A stretch of 64,000 nucleotides of DNA from an uncultured Fibrobacteraceae bacterium. GTDB lineage: Bacteria > Krumholzibacteriota > Krumholzibacteriia > LZORAL124-64-63. The number at the start of each line of letters is the position of its first letter. Within the stretch, counting starts at the first letter, position 1. Below are positions 5,985 to 12,053 of this stretch, piece by piece. The translations under genes and the position numbers were made by a program. The notes beneath the pieces were generated by a model. It did no database searches. It was not told the origin of the DNA and saw only the letters and a program-made list of their open reading frames with translations. The stretch covers positions 34,966-98,965 of the forward strand of contig CAYTFE010000005.1 in the NCBI GenBank assembly GCA_964437115.1, read 5' to 3'.

Positions 5985-8267
5985 TCACCGTTGAATAATA
6001 AGTTTTTGCGTGTCTCTTCCAGTTTCGTTTTCCAGACTCAACAGATAAACTCCAGTTGCCAGGTTATCAACATTAAGTGTCATCAGTTGAGCTGCTGGTC
6101 CTGTTGGTACTTTCTTAACGAGCCTTCCAGCCAGATCGTAAATAGCTATGCGAGTGTTCAGTCCTACTCCTGGAGTAAAACGAATAGAGACATCGTTCTT
6201 TGCCGGGTTTGGCGAAATGCTGTTGAGTGCAAGCATCGGAATAAAGTTGGGTGAATATTCCACTGTTCCAACCTGATATTCCGAGCCGTTTTCATCAATT
6301 ACATTCAGTCTATAAAGAACAGTTTCGTTTGGGCCAATAGGGTGTTGATCCAATGCTGACCAGTTGTAGTTCTGCATTTGATTCAGAGGCACATCCCACT
6401 GATTGCCATTACTGTTTCCAGTCAAAGCAAAATTCAAGTTGTCAGCAGTAACTGTCCATTGCAGCAGAGCACCATTTGCGGCAGGTTCGACAGAAAAGCT
6501 GGCCAACATGACAGGTTGGAAAGAACCGTTTATCTCACCTGGTGAACCGTAATTAAGAGAAGATGCACTCCAATTATCAGCCAGGTTATTGTTCAAGTTG
6601 TTGGAGATTAATTCAAGAGTAGGGCCGTTGCCGTCTGGCGCAGTTGGCCATGGTGCGTCGTCATCGTAAAGCACGTAGTCAACAAGTAGTCCTTCGGTAT
6701 TGAAAAGTCTGATTATTTCGCCACCGCCGGAAAATCCAAACCCGATATTTCCAACTGCATCAACACCAGGGAAAGCAGCTGAAAAATCAAAGATGCTATT
6801 GCACAAGACAAGATAACCATCAGCTGGGATCACTGTTTCTGCCGGGAGATAAAATGAATGGGAATCATTCTCATCGCGCAGACACCAGCCCGATACATCC
6901 AGCGGTTCTACCATCGGGTTGTAAATTTCGACCCAGTCGCCAGGATCAAAATCATCGGCAGAGTTGTAGTTGATTTCATTTATTACCGGGTCAACAGGCA
7001 TTTCAATTCCCCATTGAGTGTCCAGCCATGCAACGCGATCATGCATCCAGTCTCGCAGCCACTGAACTTCTTCAAGCCATGTGTCACCGATGAAGTAGTT
7101 GGGCCAGACATGTTCTCCAAGTCGTGGCCAGCGTTCGAAATCCCGTTCCTGGGCTTCAGTAAGAAACTCTGTGTAGTCGTCCAGCAAGTCATCGATTTCT
7201 GCAAGCCTCAGAACACTTTGTCTACGACGAGACCAGCTTTCAGCGAGTTGTTCCTGAATATTGTGAACAGGGTTGAAAACCATAGGTGCAGACCATAGCT
7301 GGGTATTCATGGACCACCCTTCAAAGTTCCAGTTGTTGCTGTACTCATTATTGCCAAGTGCGATGTTGAAATCCCAGACAGGGCCAAGGTGCAGAGGATC
7401 GTTGTAGTTGCTGTTGATAAATGTACTCGCAAGAAAGAAATCAGGATTGCGAGTTAATCCGTTGAGCAGAATTATATCAGTGAATGAGGCCATATCAAAC
7501 TGATCCCGATAGTCAGGTAGAGATCCACTGTAAAGTGCGGTGTCAAAGGTTGTAACTTTATCAGTAATAAAGCTGATCATGTCTGGTGTCAGGTCTTCGG
7601 AGTTTGGGTAATTTACTACCCAGAATCGATCAACGTATTGTGAACCAAAATAAATATCATCTTCTTGTAGATGGAAATTCGGTTTTATTTCAGCAATGAA
7701 TCCCCAGTTGGGGTCAGTTGGCGGCTCCATATTTATTCGTTCAGAATTTTGCGTGACTTTTTCCATGAAAACATAAATTCCATCGTAGTTGCCGTTCAAC
7801 ACAACTTCACAATATCTGGTTCTTGGTGCCCAGTAACCCATATCTCTGGCAAGTTGATAGATAATAACATTACGCATAAAAGTTTTGTCGCTGTATGGGG
7901 CCTGTAGTACCCATTTGTTTTCAGCTGGCATATCCAGAACTGAAACATCTATGCCAGTATTAACGCCGTACTGTTTTTTGGGGAAGTAGTACTGACTTGA
8001 GTGGCCGCGTGTCTGTATCCCGATATCATAATCTACTGAAGGATCAGTTACATAATTTCGGTTGCCCGGGCCGTTGTCGATGACGCTCATTTGAGCAACA
8101 ATATCCATAGAATCAGGTATTGCCTGGCCACCGGTTTCAATCAAAATGATTGGCAGGTTCGATGAGGTAAAATCGACCTGAGCACATAGAGTGCTACTGA
8201 TTAATAGGAGGAGAATAGTTAGTGTTTTCACAATTACCGATTGTAGGGGTGTAAGCATGTCGGTCAA
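5985..8267 (-). CDS. CotH kinase family protein with lamin-tail domain and T9SS-like CTD
   Basis: TRGHSS, KKQY, WVL, DKTFMRN, GPVWDFN (CotH); VINEINYN...DWVEIYN (LTD); CTD ending KLIIQR. The exact start is uncertain (TTG 8267, ATG 8258 or GTG 8231). Confidence 0.88.
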   Translation of the reverse strand: MTDMLTPLQSVIVKTLTILLLLISSTLCAQVDFTSSNLPIILIETGGQAIPDSMDIVAQMSVIDNGPGNRNYVTDPSVDYDIGIQTRGHSSQYYFPKKQYGVNTGIDVSVLDMPAENKWVLQAPYSDKTFMRNVIIYQLARDMGYWAPRTRYCEVVLNGNYDGIYVFMEKVTQNSERINMEPPTDPNWGFIAEIKPNFHLQEDDIYFGSQYVDRFWVVNYPNSEDLTPDMISFITDKVTTFDTALYSGSLPDYRDQFDMASFTDIILLNGLTRNPDFFLASTFINSNYNDPLHLGPVWDFNIALGNNEYSNNWNFEGWSMNTQLWSAPMVFNPVHNIQEQLAESWSRRRQSVLRLAEIDDLLDDYTEFLTEAQERDFERWPRLGEHVWPNYFIGDTWLEEVQWLRDWMHDRVAWLDTQWGIEMPVDPVINEINYNSADDFDPGDWVEIYNPMVEPLDVSGWCLRDENDSHSFYLPAETVIPADGYLVLCNSIFDFSAAFPGVDAVGNIGFGFSGGGEIIRLFNTEGLLVDYVLYDDDAPWPTAPDGNGPTLELISNNLNNNLADNWSASSLNYGSPGEINGSFQPVMLASFSVEPAANGALLQWTVTADNLNFALTGNSNGNQWDVPLNQMQNYNWSALDQHPIGPNETVLYRLNVIDENGSEYQVGTVEYSPNFIPMLALNSISPNPAKNDVSIRFTPGVGLNTRIAIYDLAGRLVKKVPTGPAAQLMTLNVDNLATGVYLLSLENETGRDTQKLIIQR

Positions 8268-8281
8268 CAGCTAAAATAATC

Positions 8282-8310
8282 TTTACCAACAAGTAAATAA
8301 TTACTATATT
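8282..8310 (+). promoter_or_regulatory. Putative sigma70 promoter for the 8388-11345 operon
   Basis: TTTACC-17 nt-TATATT upstream of the RBS (AGGAG) and ATG 8388. Confidence 0.45.
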
Positions 8311-8319
8311 CATTTTAAT

Positions 8320-8343
8320 ATTCCATACCAGATGGTATGGAAT
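8320..8343. promoter_or_regulatory. Perfect 10-4-10 palindrome, probable repressor operator
   Basis: ATTCCATACC-AGAT-GGTATGGAAT, just downstream of the putative -10 box. Confidence 0.6.
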
Positions 8344-8387: not shown

Positions 8388-9638
8388 ATGTCAGACATCA
8401 AGATCACCGCTGAAATGACTCTCTTTGAAGTCACTGAAAAATACCCCGAAACCATCCCGGCTTTTGTGGAAAACGGATTTGCCCATGTTGGCGATGAAGA
8501 AAAGCGCACCAAACAGGGTAAAATGGTCACTCTGGAACAGGCTATGATGATGAAGGGGAAAGACTTTGAGACTTTCAGGGATCTGCTTGTTGAGGCAGCT
8601 GAAAACGCACGTGAGTCTGAAGATGTGACACTGAATGTGGTTGATGACAGCCAGATGTTCCCAAGCAGTGGCGATATCAAGGTTGCCGGTTTGTTGCCAT
8701 GCCCGGTTCGTCTGCCATTGATTGAAGCTTTTGAGTATGTTCGTGATGATGTTGAAAAGAAACACAATTTGAAAATTGGCTACAGGTTGGCTGCTGCAAG
8801 CATCGGCATGGACGCAGTTGAAAAAGAGATGTTACGTATCAAGACTCAGGATGATCTGCCGCACCTGTTTTTGTCGGCTGGTTTTGAAGCATTTTTCGAT
8901 CACAAAAACATGGCTCGATTCAAGGACAAAGACGTATTTATTGACAGGTCCTGGGAGAACACCAACTCAGATTTTGCCGGCATCGATTTAAAAGATCCCG
9001 ACAGTCATTTCTCTATGATTTCTGTAGTACCTGCAATTTTCCTTGTCGACAAAACTCAGCTTCAGGAGGGGGAAGAAATTCCTCGCACCTGGAAAGAGCT
9101 GCTTGATCCAAAATTTGAGCGTCGGGTAGCAATGCCTGTTGGTGACTTCGATCTGTTTAACGGAATATTGCTCACACTTTACAAGCATTATGGTGAAGAT
9201 GGAATTCGTGGTGTTGCCAGAAATCTGCTCAAGTCAATGCACCCAAGCCAGGCTGCAGGCAGGTTTGCAGGTCGTCAGAAAGAAGAGTCACCTGCAATTA
9301 CAGTTATCCCGTATTTTTTCAGTAAAATGGCTCACATGAATCCTAACGTGGAGATTGTCTGGCCGGAAGATGGCGCAATTATCAGTCCTGTGTTTATGCT
9401 TGAACAGACAGATGCTCCCGAGGGCACAAAAGAGCTTGCTGATTTCTTCATGAGTAATGAGACGGGCGCAATTCTGGCACAGCGCGGGTTGTTCCCATCG
9501 TTGAATCCTGATGTTGAAAACCCGTTGCCTGAAAACGCAACCTGGTTATGGTTGGGCTGGGACTTTATTAAAGAAAATGATCTTGGTGTGTTGATTCCAA
9601 AACTGCTGGATATCTTTACCGAGAACGCGGAGGTTTAA
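8388..9638 (+). CDS. DUF1858-like N-terminal domain fused to an ABC-type solute-binding fold; no signal peptide
   Basis: 'TLFEVTEKYPETIPAFVENGF' resembles DUF1858. The SBP-like region has LLPCPVR, 'PRTWKELLDPKF' and 'WPEDGAIISP'. The N-terminus is not hydrophobic. Confidence 0.8.
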   Translation: MSDIKITAEMTLFEVTEKYPETIPAFVENGFAHVGDEEKRTKQGKMVTLEQAMMMKGKDFETFRDLLVEAAENARESEDVTLNVVDDSQMFPSSGDIKVAGLLPCPVRLPLIEAFEYVRDDVEKKHNLKIGYRLAAASIGMDAVEKEMLRIKTQDDLPHLFLSAGFEAFFDHKNMARFKDKDVFIDRSWENTNSDFAGIDLKDPDSHFSMISVVPAIFLVDKTQLQEGEEIPRTWKELLDPKFERRVAMPVGDFDLFNGILLTLYKHYGEDGIRGVARNLLKSMHPSQAAGRFAGRQKEESPAITVIPYFFSKMAHMNPNVEIVWPEDGAIISPVFMLEQTDAPEGTKELADFFMSNETGAILAQRGLFPSLNPDVENPLPENATWLWLGWDFIKENDLGVLIPKLLDIFTENAEV

Positions 9639-9639
9639 T

Positions 9640-10377
9640 GTGAAACTAGTAACAGTAAGTGGGCCGCCGTCGTCTGGAAAAACATCGGTGATTTTGAAAA
9701 CGCTGGAACATTTGCAGGCAGAAAAACGCAATGTTGGCGTAGTGAAATTTGACTGTCTTTACACTGACGATGATGAAATTTATCGCAAGGTTGGAGTACC
9801 AGTCAAAAAAGGACTTTCAGGCGCACTTTGCCCCGACCACTATTTTGTCAGCAATATTGAAGAGTGTGTGCAGTGGGGAATCAAAGAAAATCTCGATGTT
9901 CTGGTTAGCGAAAGCGCCGGGCTTTGTAATCGATGTTCACCTTATGTACGAGAAATTCTTGCAGTCTGTGTGATCGATAATCTTTCCGGTATAAACACTC
10001 CTAAAAAAATTGGCCCGATGCTCAAGAGTGCTGACATCGTAATCATCACAAAAGGTGACATTGTAAGTCAGGCAGAGCGTGAGGTTTTTGCGTCGCGAGT
10101 GCACAGAGTAAATCCAAAAGCACGAATTATGCATGTCAACGGCATCACCGGACAGGGCAGTTTTGAGTTTTCAACTCTGTGGACCGATGGCGATGAAGTT
10201 GAAACTGTTGAAGGTAAAAAATTGCGGTTCTCAATGCCGGCTGCGCTTTGCAGTTACTGTCTGGGTGAAACCAGAATCGGTAGTGAATTCCAGATGGGTA
10301 ATGTTAGAAAGATGGACCTTGGCGATACTACAAGACAAACTGCAGACCCAATGACTTCACCCAAGGAGAGCAAGTAA
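9640..10377 (+). CDS. HypB/UreG-like (G3E) GTP-binding protein
   Basis: GPPSSGKTS, KFDCLYTDD, LCPDHY, ESAGLCNRC, TKGD and a C-terminal LCSYC; GTG start. Confidence 0.88.
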   Translation: MKLVTVSGPPSSGKTSVILKTLEHLQAEKRNVGVVKFDCLYTDDDEIYRKVGVPVKKGLSGALCPDHYFVSNIEECVQWGIKENLDVLVSESAGLCNRCSPYVREILAVCVIDNLSGINTPKKIGPMLKSADIVIITKGDIVSQAEREVFASRVHRVNPKARIMHVNGITGQGSFEFSTLWTDGDEVETVEGKKLRFSMPAALCSYCLGETRIGSEFQMGNVRKMDLGDTTRQTADPMTSPKESK

Positions 10378-11345
10378 TGGATATTCGTAAAGAACTTGCT
10401 TCAATCATTGTTGGAGATCTGAATTCACGATGGCCTTACGCCACAACTTTTCTGGCAAAAAATAATCTGGAAATTGAAGACGACCCATCACAAAAGCTGA
10501 GTGAAGTTGCCAGTGATGAACTGCTGGACCAGCTCGCTGAATTCATTATCGAAATGGAATCTTTTCTTTCTGACGATGAAGAAGTTGTCGATGAAATTAC
10601 CATCTTTGGTGGCAAATGTAAAAACGGTGAGCCGGAAGGTGTGCGTGAGTTGACCATCAGAGTTGGTGAAGTTATCTGTATTGTCGGGCCAACCGGTTCG
10701 GGCAAAAGCAGACTACTTGCCGATATTGAATGGGTCGCTCAGAAAGATACGCCAACCGGAAGAAGCGTACTGATCAATGGTAAAATTCCTGAAAGCAAGT
10801 GGCGCACATCAAGTGAACACAAGCTTGTTGCGCAGTTAAGTCAGAACATGAATTTTGTAATGGACTTGTCTGTAGAAGAATTTCTGACACTGCACGCAGA
10901 GAGCAGGCAGACAGAAAACCCTGAAGAGAAGATTCAGCAGATCTGGAACGATGCCAATGCTCTTGCTGGTGAACCTTTTGCATTGGATACTCCAATTACA
11001 AGTCTCAGTGGCGGACAGTCCAGAGCGTTGATGATTGCAGATACTGCAATACTTTCAAAGTCGCCAGTTGTGTTGATTGATGAGATTGAAAACGCAGGTA
11101 TCGATCGTCAAAAGGCACTCGATATTCTAGTAAGTCAGGATAAAATTGTGTTGATGGCAACCCATGATCCAATCCTGGCACTGATGGGCGATCGACGAGT
11201 TGTAATCAATAACGGTGGTATGAAGTCTGTTGTTGAGCCTAGCGAAAAAGAACACGCAAATCTTGTAGACTTGCGTGCTCTTGATGACAGAATGATGAAG
11301 CTTCGCCACAGGTTGAGAATGGGCGAGAGGCTGGATGAAGTTTAG
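10377..11345 (+). CDS. ABC-type ATPase with N-terminal extension (no cognate permease nearby)
   Basis: Walker A GPTGSGKS, signature LSGGQ, Walker B VVLIDE, H-loop ATHD; overlaps the previous stop (TAATG). Confidence 0.9.
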   Translation: MDIRKELASIIVGDLNSRWPYATTFLAKNNLEIEDDPSQKLSEVASDELLDQLAEFIIEMESFLSDDEEVVDEITIFGGKCKNGEPEGVRELTIRVGEVICIVGPTGSGKSRLLADIEWVAQKDTPTGRSVLINGKIPESKWRTSSEHKLVAQLSQNMNFVMDLSVEEFLTLHAESRQTENPEEKIQQIWNDANALAGEPFALDTPITSLSGGQSRALMIADTAILSKSPVVLIDEIENAGIDRQKALDILVSQDKIVLMATHDPILALMGDRRVVINNGGMKSVVEPSEKEHANLVDLRALDDRMMKLRHRLRMGERLDEV

Positions 11346-11941
11346 TTCTCTTCTTTAGGCATATACTCGTCAGGCACAACCAGCTCAACAGTTTTTTCAA
11401 ACAGGAATTCGCGATTCCAGTACACACGCATAGCGTAGGTGCCGGGGTCGCGTTCTTTTTCAGGAGAGATGTTGAGTTTTGTATCAAGCCTGAAAGTTGG
11501 TTTTTCAGTAATGATTGGATCTGCAACTTTTGAGTAATGCAGATCTTCAGCTTTCAGCCAGACAATATTTGTGGTGTAGCTGTCATCGGTTTTAGTCATT
11601 GTGACTTCACCAAACTTGCGGAACATCTCTTTGCCGTCCGGTCTGATCCAGCCCAGATGGATCTGATGAGTTTTATCCAGTTGTGGATTACTGATATCGA
11701 TAGCAGCTCTCAAGTATTTGTTTTTCTTTTTACTGCTGACTTTGAACGTGTCTTTCACGCCAAGCAACTTGCCTGACTTTTTACTTACAGCACGATAGAA
11801 AATTATATCGCTCCCAAACTGATCTTCTGCCAGCTCAGAACCAGCATCAACAACAGCCTTGAATTCTTTGACATCGCTCTGCTCGCAACCGCTGATCAAA
11901 GCACCACATACCAATAATAAAACCAGAAACTTACTCATCAT
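11342..11941 (-). CDS. Hypothetical lipoprotein
   Basis: The start is moved to ATG 11941 behind AGGAGG; lipobox 'ALISGC'; beta-rich mature region. Confidence 0.72.
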   Translation of the reverse strand: MMSKFLVLLLVCGALISGCEQSDVKEFKAVVDAGSELAEDQFGSDIIFYRAVSKKSGKLLGVKDTFKVSSKKKNKYLRAAIDISNPQLDKTHQIHLGWIRPDGKEMFRKFGEVTMTKTDDSYTTNIVWLKAEDLHYSKVADPIITEKPTFRLDTKLNISPEKERDPGTYAMRVYWNREFLFEKTVELVVPDEYMPKEEN

Positions 11942-11967
11942 TGTCCTCCTTGTCAGACGAACATAAC

Positions 11968-11998
11968 AAAAGAGGAGACACTTTGCATCTCCTCTTTT
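11968..11998. terminator. Intrinsic terminator (second of a tandem pair)
   Basis: AAAAGAGGAGA-9 nt-TCTCCTCTTTT perfect inverted repeat with T tracts on both strands. Confidence 0.75.
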
Positions 11999-12013
11999 TG
12001 TAAAAACTGAAAA

Positions 12014-12047
12014 GGCAACAAGGCGAAGCGGGGAACGCCTCGTTGCC
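12014..12047 (-). terminator. Intrinsic terminator after the large C25 gene
   Basis: Minus strand GGCAACGAGGCG-loop-CGCCTTGTTGCC followed by TTTTCAGTTTTT. Confidence 0.7.
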
Positions 12048-12053
12048 ATAGTT

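Follow-up and report, generated by a model that had tools for sequence, protein, structure and literature searches.

Why should a gene for a solute-binding fold share an operon with a G3E-type GTPase and an ATP-binding cassette (ABC) ATPase when no permease is in sight? The question is raised by genes A, B and C, at positions 8388 to 11345 of a 64,000-nucleotide (nt) stretch of DNA (the window) from an uncultured Fibrobacteraceae bacterium (assembly GCA_964437115.1, contig CAYTFE010000005.1). Our best answer is that A-B-C (the triad) is a soluble module with two nucleoside triphosphatases (NTPases) that handles iron or iron-sulfur (Fe-S) centres and is induced by nitrite or nitric oxide (NO) or by Fe-S stress. 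We put the probability of this reading at roughly 55%; the complex itself, its cargo, the direction of transfer and the inducing signal are what we infer. The initial annotation of the locus, made from the letters alone, had likewise proposed a soluble metal or Fe-S machine rather than a transporter. Control by Rrf2/FNR-type sites, a UreG-like Cys-Pro-x-His motif in B and fusions of B to C argue for that proposal, as does the context, in which hcp, nrfHA, sufBCD-ferritin and nitrogenase-like genes appear as neighbours or as co-regulated genes.

The three genes lie as follows.
8388-9638, plus strand: gene A, 416 amino acids (aa), a candidate cytoplasmic cargo holder.
9640-10377, plus strand: gene B, 245 aa, GTG start, a G3E-type GTPase.
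10377-11345, plus strand: gene C, 322 aa, a soluble ABC ATPase.

These open reading frames coincide exactly with the three coupled genes of the initial annotation. The TAA stop of A (9636-9638) is followed by a single base and then by the GTG of B at 9640, which lies behind a GGAGG ribosome-binding site. The TAA stop of B (10375-10377) overlaps the ATG of C at 10377, as TAATG. Judged from both junctions, A, B and C are translationally coupled. Pfam searches also agreed with the identities given earlier to the three products, namely a solute-binding-protein fold, a G3E GTPase and an ABC ATPase.

Protein A, encoded on the plus strand, has three parts.
aa 6-63, nt 8403-8576: DUF1858 head (Pfam).
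aa 78-85: flexible linker, disordered in the AlphaFold2 model.
aa ~97-416: class-II binding-protein body (AlphaFold2 model, Foldseek).

Pfam matched aa 6-63 to DUF1858 (E 1.4e-15) and aa 155-397 to SBP_bac_6 (E 5e-74), and the head also matched the solved DUF1858 protein PDB 2FI0 (E 8e-9). The AlphaFold2 model (predicted local distance difference test, pLDDT, 86.8) has a class-II binding-protein body, for which the best Foldseek matches were FutA1 (with Fe(II)), FbpA, AfuA and P5PA, at E ~1e-12, 12-17% identity and a template-modelling score of 0.6-0.68 on the target. A sequence-only search of A against the PDB gave no match, and a profile search gave only the DUF1858 head and weak binding-protein matches.

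Neither a signal peptide nor a lipobox was present in A. In all 15 aligned sequences (the window and 14 homologues; alignment A1) DUF1858 forms the N-terminus, which upholds the earlier description of A as a binding-protein fold without a signal peptide and with a DUF1858-like N-terminal domain. Export of A had been named as an outcome that would speak against a soluble machine, and none of these N-termini suggests it. True lipoprotein binding proteins at distant loci, unlike A, do show an export signal. Alignment A1 has as invariant elements C105 (nt 8700-8702), AGFEAFFD, PVGDFDLFNG, H285-PSQ and WPEDGA; the sole invariant Cys is C105, which belongs to GLLPCPVR and lies where the first helix begins.

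Two known groups resemble A. The binding proteins of cluster-D importers (FbpA, FutA, AfuA) share the fold of its body, but A is cytoplasmic, has a DUF1858 head and is only 12-17% identical to them. Ferric-binding proteins use a Tyr/His ligand set, whereas the conserved residues of A are Cys, His and Asp. RIC/YtfE/ScdA proteins, like A, join a small helical head to a body of iron-binding kind (proposed, for A), and like the A module they are placed in NO-stress regulons beside Hcp. They differ in that their body is a hemerythrin-like di-iron domain rather than a binding-protein fold (Pfam found no hemerythrin domain in A), in that the head of A has no Cys pair, and in that RIC needs no NTPases. 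We take DUF1858 to be related to ScdA_N; the sole trace of this in our data is a weak match to TIGR03980, a 'hybrid cluster protein-associated' domain.

Protein B carries the cobW/HypB/UreG domain PF02492 (E 1.1e-14, above cut-off). Its motifs in the window are GPPSSGKT, C39, C64-P-D-H67 (nt 9829-9840), ESAG-L-C96-N-R-C99, C110, TKGD and C204-S-Y-C207. In alignment A2, where B is 69-80% identical to homologues from other phyla, GPPSSGKT, ESAG (with the Glu of G3) and TKGD are invariant. So are all seven Cys (C39, C64, C96, C99, C110, C204 and C207), in the motifs DCL, LCPDH, LCNRC and LCSYC. C64-P-D-H67 aligned with the nickel-binding CPH of Helicobacter pylori UreG (PDB 4HI0), and TKGD aligned with INKID of UreG, at the guanine-specificity (NKxD) position.

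In its Walker A motif, the Glu of its G3 motif and a Cys-Pro-x-His aligned with the UreG nickel site, B is like HypB and UreG. It differs from them in having two CxxC pairs, with four more invariant Cys, as well as C39 and C110, in having TKGD where NKxD is expected, in always being paired with an ABC ATPase, to which it is at times fused, and in being unlinked to hydrogenase or urease genes. It scored below the cut-offs of the HypB model TIGR00073 (53.2 bits, cut-off 121.2), the UreG model TIGR00101 (27.6 bits, cut-off 204.2) and the ZigA model (14.7 bits, cut-off 600). Of the marks of COG0523, a CxCC motif and a CobW C-terminal domain, B has neither; one of its CxxC pairs follows ESAG, the other is C-terminal, and the whole protein has only 245 aa. 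According to a 2022 review, the G3E subfamilies are just four: UreG, HypB, MeaB and COG0523 (PMC9164220). On these sequence criteria, B is a member of the G3E superfamily that matches none of the four named subfamilies.

Protein C, also encoded on the plus strand, has two main parts.
aa 1-64, nt 10377-10568: helical head in the AlphaFold2 model, followed by a lower-confidence linker.
aa ~72-290: nucleotide-binding domain, followed by a C-terminal helix.

Pfam placed ABC_tran at aa 91-236 (E 4e-16). The motifs of C are Walker A GPTGSGKS, LSGGQ, Walker B VVLIDE and H-loop ATHD, and GPTGSGKS, LSGGQ, LIDE and THD are invariant among its homologues (alignment A3), which makes a full ABC ATPase motif set. 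In the AlphaFold2 model (pLDDT 86.7) the head is probably DUF1858-like: it matched DUF1858 weakly (hhalign probability 55% over 63 columns), and helices at aa 12-18 and 20-28 are common to the modelled heads of A and C. Foldseek returned generic nucleotide-binding domains (CbiO, LptB, SmsC, MalK), SmsC being as good a fold match as the others, and this fold search of C did not tell SufC/SmsC-like proteins from transporter ATPases. SufC in SufBC2D, and SmsCB, are like C in being ABC-type ATPases that have soluble partners and no permease. In contrast to SufBC2D, the window has no SufB or SufD, and the partners of C are a GTPase and a binding-protein fold; C also differs from SufC in its N-terminal head and its family-specific motifs, IEWVAQxDTPTGR and KLVAQLSQNMNF. 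The initial annotation had pointed to Cys motifs in all three proteins. This holds for A (C105 of LPCPVR) and B, where all are invariant, but not for C, whose 'GKCK' Cys is present in the window and not kept among the homologues in A3.

A binding-protein fold with two NTPases could also be a sensor or regulatory device, in which A would sense a small ligand and the NTPases would relay the signal with no transfer of cargo. Binding-protein folds are often sensors, and DUF1858 heads occur in regulators of nitrate respiration such as DrpB of Thermus (PMC6282519). The conserved unit includes neither an output domain nor a DNA-binding partner, and different lineages have different regulator genes nearby. 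In its invariant Cys and His residues, B is typical of a metal carrier; we regard this device as very improbable.

A scan of one genome per species yielded 80 triad loci, spread over about ten phyla. The lineages are Krumholzibacteriota, metagenome-assembled genomes labelled Fibrobacteraceae, Gemmatimonadota, Latescibacterota, Myxococcota, Cloacimonadota, Spirochaetota, Fermentibacteria and Desulfuromonadota, and there is a cultured carrier, Desulfuromusa kysingii DSM 7343 (locus L061). Wherever the contig reaches far enough, the genes stand in the order A-B-C on the same strand. B is 66-99% identical across the 80 loci. The arrangement is far beyond chance. Within the phylum of the window, B was found in 43 of 201 sampled genomes, all 43 in the window's own family; the triad is thus an accessory module with a patchy distribution. 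Public databases give the three proteins generic names such as 'ABC transporter substrate-binding protein' and 'GTP-binding protein', and we found no published description of the module in the literature.

Two kinds of apparent A-B fusion were rejected. The 663-aa frame of locus L076 (679-2670) is bridged by a masked run of N, and the 680-aa A-B 'open frames' of GC-rich genomes are stop-poor overlaps in which A and B lie in different frames.

The absence of a membrane subunit in or next to the operon, noted earlier, was confirmed in the window, where both flanks are unrelated to the triad.
5985-8267, minus strand: left flank, a CotH/LTD protein with a type IX secretion tail.
11342-12049, minus strand: right flank, a small lipoprotein-like gene of 235 aa with the lipobox LISGC and no Pfam match.
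The right-hand, convergent gene ends with a 4-nt overlap at the stop codon of C, and the two genes have no terminator between them.

The neighbourhood survey that the initial annotation had called for, aimed at a co-conserved permease, was run by hydropathy scan over 4 kb around the 80 loci, and no permease is consistently linked. Proteins with at least four transmembrane segments occur at 27 of the loci, and no permease family recurs beyond a few related genomes. Among these neighbours are a NapH-like polyferredoxin at three Myxococcota-type loci and FetB-like proteins at three Fermentibacteria loci, with FetAB-like genes downstream. ModB lies near the triad at several Krumholzibacteria loci, on the opposite strand and three genes off.

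These data bear on the plainest alternative, an ordinary ABC importer whose permease is encoded elsewhere and whose binding protein A is exported by an unrecognised route. The families of A and C do mostly serve transporters. But A starts with a folded cytoplasmic domain and no homologue has a signal peptide or lipobox, no permease recurs across the 80 loci, A and C are always separated by the GTPase, which two lineages have as a fusion with C, and the true importers found adjacent to the module (see below) bring their own binding lipoprotein and ATPase. We consider such an importer scarcely credible.

Upstream of gene A the window holds three regulatory features.
8320-8343, no strand assigned: perfect 11-2-11 palindrome, ATTCCATACCA-GA-TGGTATGGAAT, predicted operator of an Rrf2-family repressor.
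8277-8302, no strand assigned: second, imperfect operator-like site, TAATCTTTACCAACAAGTAAATAATT, over the -35 region (weight-matrix score 20.9; C5:43242 is window 8277).
8282-8310, plus strand: promoter-like site, TTTACC-17-TATATT, 9 of 12 matches in a consensus scan, not significant alone.

The half-site pattern aATTCyATACC-N4-GGTATrGAATt is kept in place before the triad in 12 related genomes, where the operator sits at or just after a promoter-like element; in relatives, the promoter-like TTGCG(G)-17/18-GATATT directly abuts it. When 4 mismatches were allowed, a search for the palindrome core gave pure noise. The scans below used a weight matrix built from the 12 orthologous operators and a stricter pattern with a reversed-pattern control. 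Over the whole 2.32-Mb genome, the matrix ranked the palindrome (30.3), then the site 42 nt upstream (20.9), then a site before an Rrf2-family gene (19.5). The Krumholzibacteria (L012-L036) carry another conserved operator, TTAAAT-TGGAy-N6-rTCCA, ~60-90 nt before gene A.

The third-ranked site, TATTCTATACCGATAGATAATTATTT, lies 17 nt before the Rrf2-family gene at C2:191726-192163, here called rrf2a, in an operon outside the window.
C2:190132-192205: Rrf2 regulator (145 aa), NapH/MauN-type membrane polyferredoxin (356 aa) and a second Rrf2-like gene.
This Rrf2/NapH-like/Rrf2 arrangement and its site are kept in related genomes. Orthologues of Rrf2a (46-92% identity) occur in exactly those genomes whose triad has the ATACC-type operator, and none was found in the Krumholzibacteria genomes with the TGGAy-N6-rTCCA operator, on which some other regulator must therefore act. 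An operator-like site lies 8-28 nt before the start of rrf2a in 9 of the 13 orthologue-bearing genomes, eight of the sites scoring at least 15.8 and the ninth (L090) 8.8. The chance rate of such scores is 5 in 2.3 Mb genome-wide, or about 6e-4 per upstream region.

The predicted repressor belongs to the Rrf2 superfamily (TIGR00738, 95.9 bits, cut-off 73.3) and falls below both named equivalogs, IscR (71 against 207.6 bits) and NsrR (31.8 against 182 bits). Since it does, the link to nitrite and NO is drawn from its apparent targets. In seven genomes scanned with the strict pattern, only two sites turned up besides the triad promoters, both 20-50 nt before nrfH-nrfA (cytochrome c nitrite reductase).
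L136 1501-1524 (G007:C7:4327-4350): operator site before nrfH-nrfA.
L137 1501-1524 (G009:C64:38144-38167): operator site before nrfH-nrfA.

A weaker ATACC-type half-site (score 14.7) was seen elsewhere in the window's genome, just before the start of another Rrf2 regulator gene. That gene follows one for a sulfide:quinone-oxidoreductase-like flavoprotein, at C7:36083-38184, outside the window.

In a second clade of triad carriers (Cloacimonadota, Spirochaetota, Fermentibacteria and Desulfuromusa), an Rrf2 regulator gene and a cupin gene stand upstream of A-B-C, and an 80-aa mini-protein gene, described below, stands downstream as part of the triad operon. Hcp (PF03063, E 7e-180) is encoded downstream of the triad or divergently upstream of it. 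The Desulfuromusa hcp/A intergenic region has TTGAy-N4-ATCAA boxes of FNR/HcpR type. Hcp is present in 22 of 22 genomes of this clade, against 3 of 28 in the window's clade, and no Prismane-family (Hcp) gene was found in the window's genome, which is 92% complete. Hcp is a frequent companion of the triad; with these counts, we rejected it as an obligate client.

The mini-protein follows the pattern MH(D/E)GC ... CxxC ... CxxC ... PCH. In the window's genome it is encoded at C19:21390-21632 (hidden Markov model E 6.5e-37), unlinked to the triad and outside the window.
C19:20305-21632: genes for a cyclophilin, an FmdE-family protein (196 aa, GHSCP) and the mini-protein, abutting or overlapping.
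In the window's clade, 13 of 20 genomes encode the mini-protein, and in none of them is its gene linked to the triad. Operator-like sites (scores 11.6-19.7) precede its gene in five genomes with the ATACC-type operator, and in three Krumholzibacteria genomes, read by eye, the operator type proper to those genomes lies upstream. No operator was found before the FmdE/mini-protein operon of the window's genome. From these upstream sites, the mini-protein appears to be co-regulated with the triad. A general link between FmdE and the mini-protein was rejected, the pairing being confined to the window's genus. HypA resembles the mini-protein in its MHx N-terminus (MHE in HypA) and its CxxC...CxxC zinc ribbon; the mini-protein scored 19 bits against HypA PF01155 (cut-off 28.9), with the zinc-ribbon part alone aligned.

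The likeness to HypA raises the question of whether the same soluble machine might serve one client enzyme with a metal other than iron. Nickel would be the choice suggested by HypA/HypB and UreG; zinc, cobalt, molybdenum and tungsten are further candidates. The closest solved relatives of B are UreG and HypB, its CPDH aligns with a nickel site, and the co-regulated mini-protein is HypA-like (MH(D/E)GC, two CxxC, a weak PF01155 match). The window's genome has [NiFe] hydrogenases; modABC lies near the triad at several Krumholzibacteria loci, and a distant B-like gene (below) stands among ModE, TOBE and molybdopterin-enzyme genes. However, the genome already has a canonical HypB-like gene beside a hydrogenase, and B is below the HypB and UreG cut-offs. 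The control sites are of Rrf2/FNR type, with no NikR or ModE gene adjacent to the triad, the neighbouring or co-regulated genes encode iron proteins (Hcp, NrfA, NapH-like, SufBCD, ferritin), and the fold of A is nearest to iron-binding proteins. We judge a machine for a metal other than iron to be unlikely.

When 1.84 billion cluster representatives were searched with a profile of B, 91 matched at E <=1e-30. Two of these clusters are B-C fusions. The larger comprises 11 proteins, mostly of 613-616 aa with one of 538 aa. The smaller comprises 5 proteins of 509 aa that come from several assemblies and lie on contigs of up to 189 kb. The distant B and C proteins are 43-48% and 38-48% identical, respectively, to those of the window. 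Their loci include the following.
L149 1-7530, L153 1510-9226 and L150 3-4725: nitrogenase-like loci, with two Oxidored_nitro genes, FecCD-type importer genes and A', B and C.
L151 1001-7725: SUF-ferritin locus, with head-less C, B, two paralogues, sufB-sufC-sufD and ferritin.
L157 5148-7696 (AP021879.1): lone B-like GTPase gene without A or C, after a 620-aa radical-SAM gene.

At the nitrogenase-like loci A' is head-less and cytoplasmic and keeps LPC and HPSQ, B and C are fused or separate, and one locus has a CRP/FNR-type regulator. L149 and L153/L154 hold a full Peripla_BP_2 lipoprotein/FecCD/ABC_tran set; on the short contig of L150, an ATPase fragment and a lipoprotein are all that is visible of the importer. 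The two paralogues of L151 share a C-terminal domain, and one has a PF04060 Fe-S-binding N-terminus; the sufBCD operon there has its own SufC besides the C and B pair. In another distant context, C and B are accompanied by a PF04060-like protein. What stays constant is B with C, and the cargo holder varies among distant lineages. The surroundings of L157 hold ModA-type transporters, ModE-like and TOBE genes and a molybdopterin enzyme, and its B-like gene may be a separate subfamily tied to molybdenum or tungsten.

The importer genes of the nitrogenase-like loci invite a further alternative, in which the module receives what an import route brings into the cytoplasm: A would catch a metal chelate delivered by a separate importer, and B and C would strip it and pass on the metal. 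Three distant lineages share an operon or locus with FecCD-type importer genes (L149, L153/L154 and L150), and FetAB-like genes lie downstream in Fermentibacteria. Yet no importer of this kind adjoins the triad at any of the 80 close loci, the flanks in the window are unrelated, and the regulators are of Fe-S/NO type and not of the Fur type of iron starvation, though Fur boxes were not searched for. This makes an import-end role distinctly unlikely.

The distant pairs also suggest a bolder version of the soluble machine, which we hold to be possible but doubtful. B and C would be the core of an unrecognised two-NTPase metallocentre machine acting on a soluble holder (A or a PF04060 Fe-S protein), with B as a fifth branch of the G3E family. 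Such a machine would be an importer turned inward, with no membrane. Working alongside ISC, SUF and NIF, it would provide or restore complex centres of iron or Fe-S (NO-damaged clusters, the hybrid cluster of Hcp, nitrogenase-like clusters).

We return to the reading given at the outset, a soluble module for iron or Fe-S centres. The most probable cargo is iron itself or a small fragment of Fe-S or iron-nitrosyl type. We prefer iron or Fe-S on three grounds: the fold of A is nearest to iron-binding proteins, the regulators are of the Fe-S-sensing kind, and the companions are iron proteins (Hcp, NrfA, the NapH-like polyferredoxin, SufBCD, ferritin and nitrogenase-like enzymes).

The module might work as follows. 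A would hold the cargo in the cleft of its FbpA/FutA-like fold; candidate ligands are the invariant Cys105, His285 and the DFD loop. C, as a dimer, would clamp and open A by ATP binding and hydrolysis, following the logic of an importer ATPase without a permease, and the flexible DUF1858-type heads on A and C would be docking pieces. A dimer of B would take the metal at an interface Cys-Pro-Asp-His site, helped by four further Cys, and GTP hydrolysis by B would lead to the metal being passed on. The unlinked 80-aa mini-protein (MHDGC..., two CxxC) may be a HypA-like adaptor. A putative Rrf2-family Fe-S repressor would sit on the 8320-8343 palindrome and on the weaker -35 site. Damage to its cluster or loss of it, for example under nitrite or NO stress or Fe-S shortage, would release the promoter.

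Several observations weigh against a role in iron or Fe-S handling under nitrite or NO stress. The two genomes with nrfHA sites are closely related and amount to about one observation. The window's genome has neither Hcp nor NrfA, and the NO link rests on other genomes together with an Rrf2 regulator that scores too low for NsrR or IscR. Among characterised proteins, those nearest to B carry nickel rather than iron, and the mini-protein resembles HypA. In Krumholzibacteria loci modABC is three genes away, a hint of molybdenum, and the lone B-like gene lies amid ModE/TOBE genes. FecCD importers hint at imported chelates, and in distant lineages the module shares its operon with a full importer of FecCD type that has a binding protein and an ATPase of its own.

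New here are the operator regulon of the Hcp-less clade, its links to the NapH-like operon and to nrfHA, the co-regulation of the mini-protein, the B-C fusions and the SUF-ferritin neighbourhood. If our reading is true, the few metallochaperone systems known to be driven by nucleotides would gain a new type, and the module would be the first case of an ABC ATPase and a G3E GTPase working jointly on a cytoplasmic 'periplasmic-type' binding protein. It would also be a candidate for how anaerobes re-supply or repair iron and Fe-S centres under nitrite or NO stress; for such repair, only RIC/YtfE and the general ISC/SUF systems are, to our knowledge, known so far. Misled by the generic annotations, metabolic reconstructions count an importer of iron or polyamines where there is probably none. 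Uncultured phyla carry the module widely, and the cultured Desulfuromusa kysingii DSM 7343 makes testing feasible.

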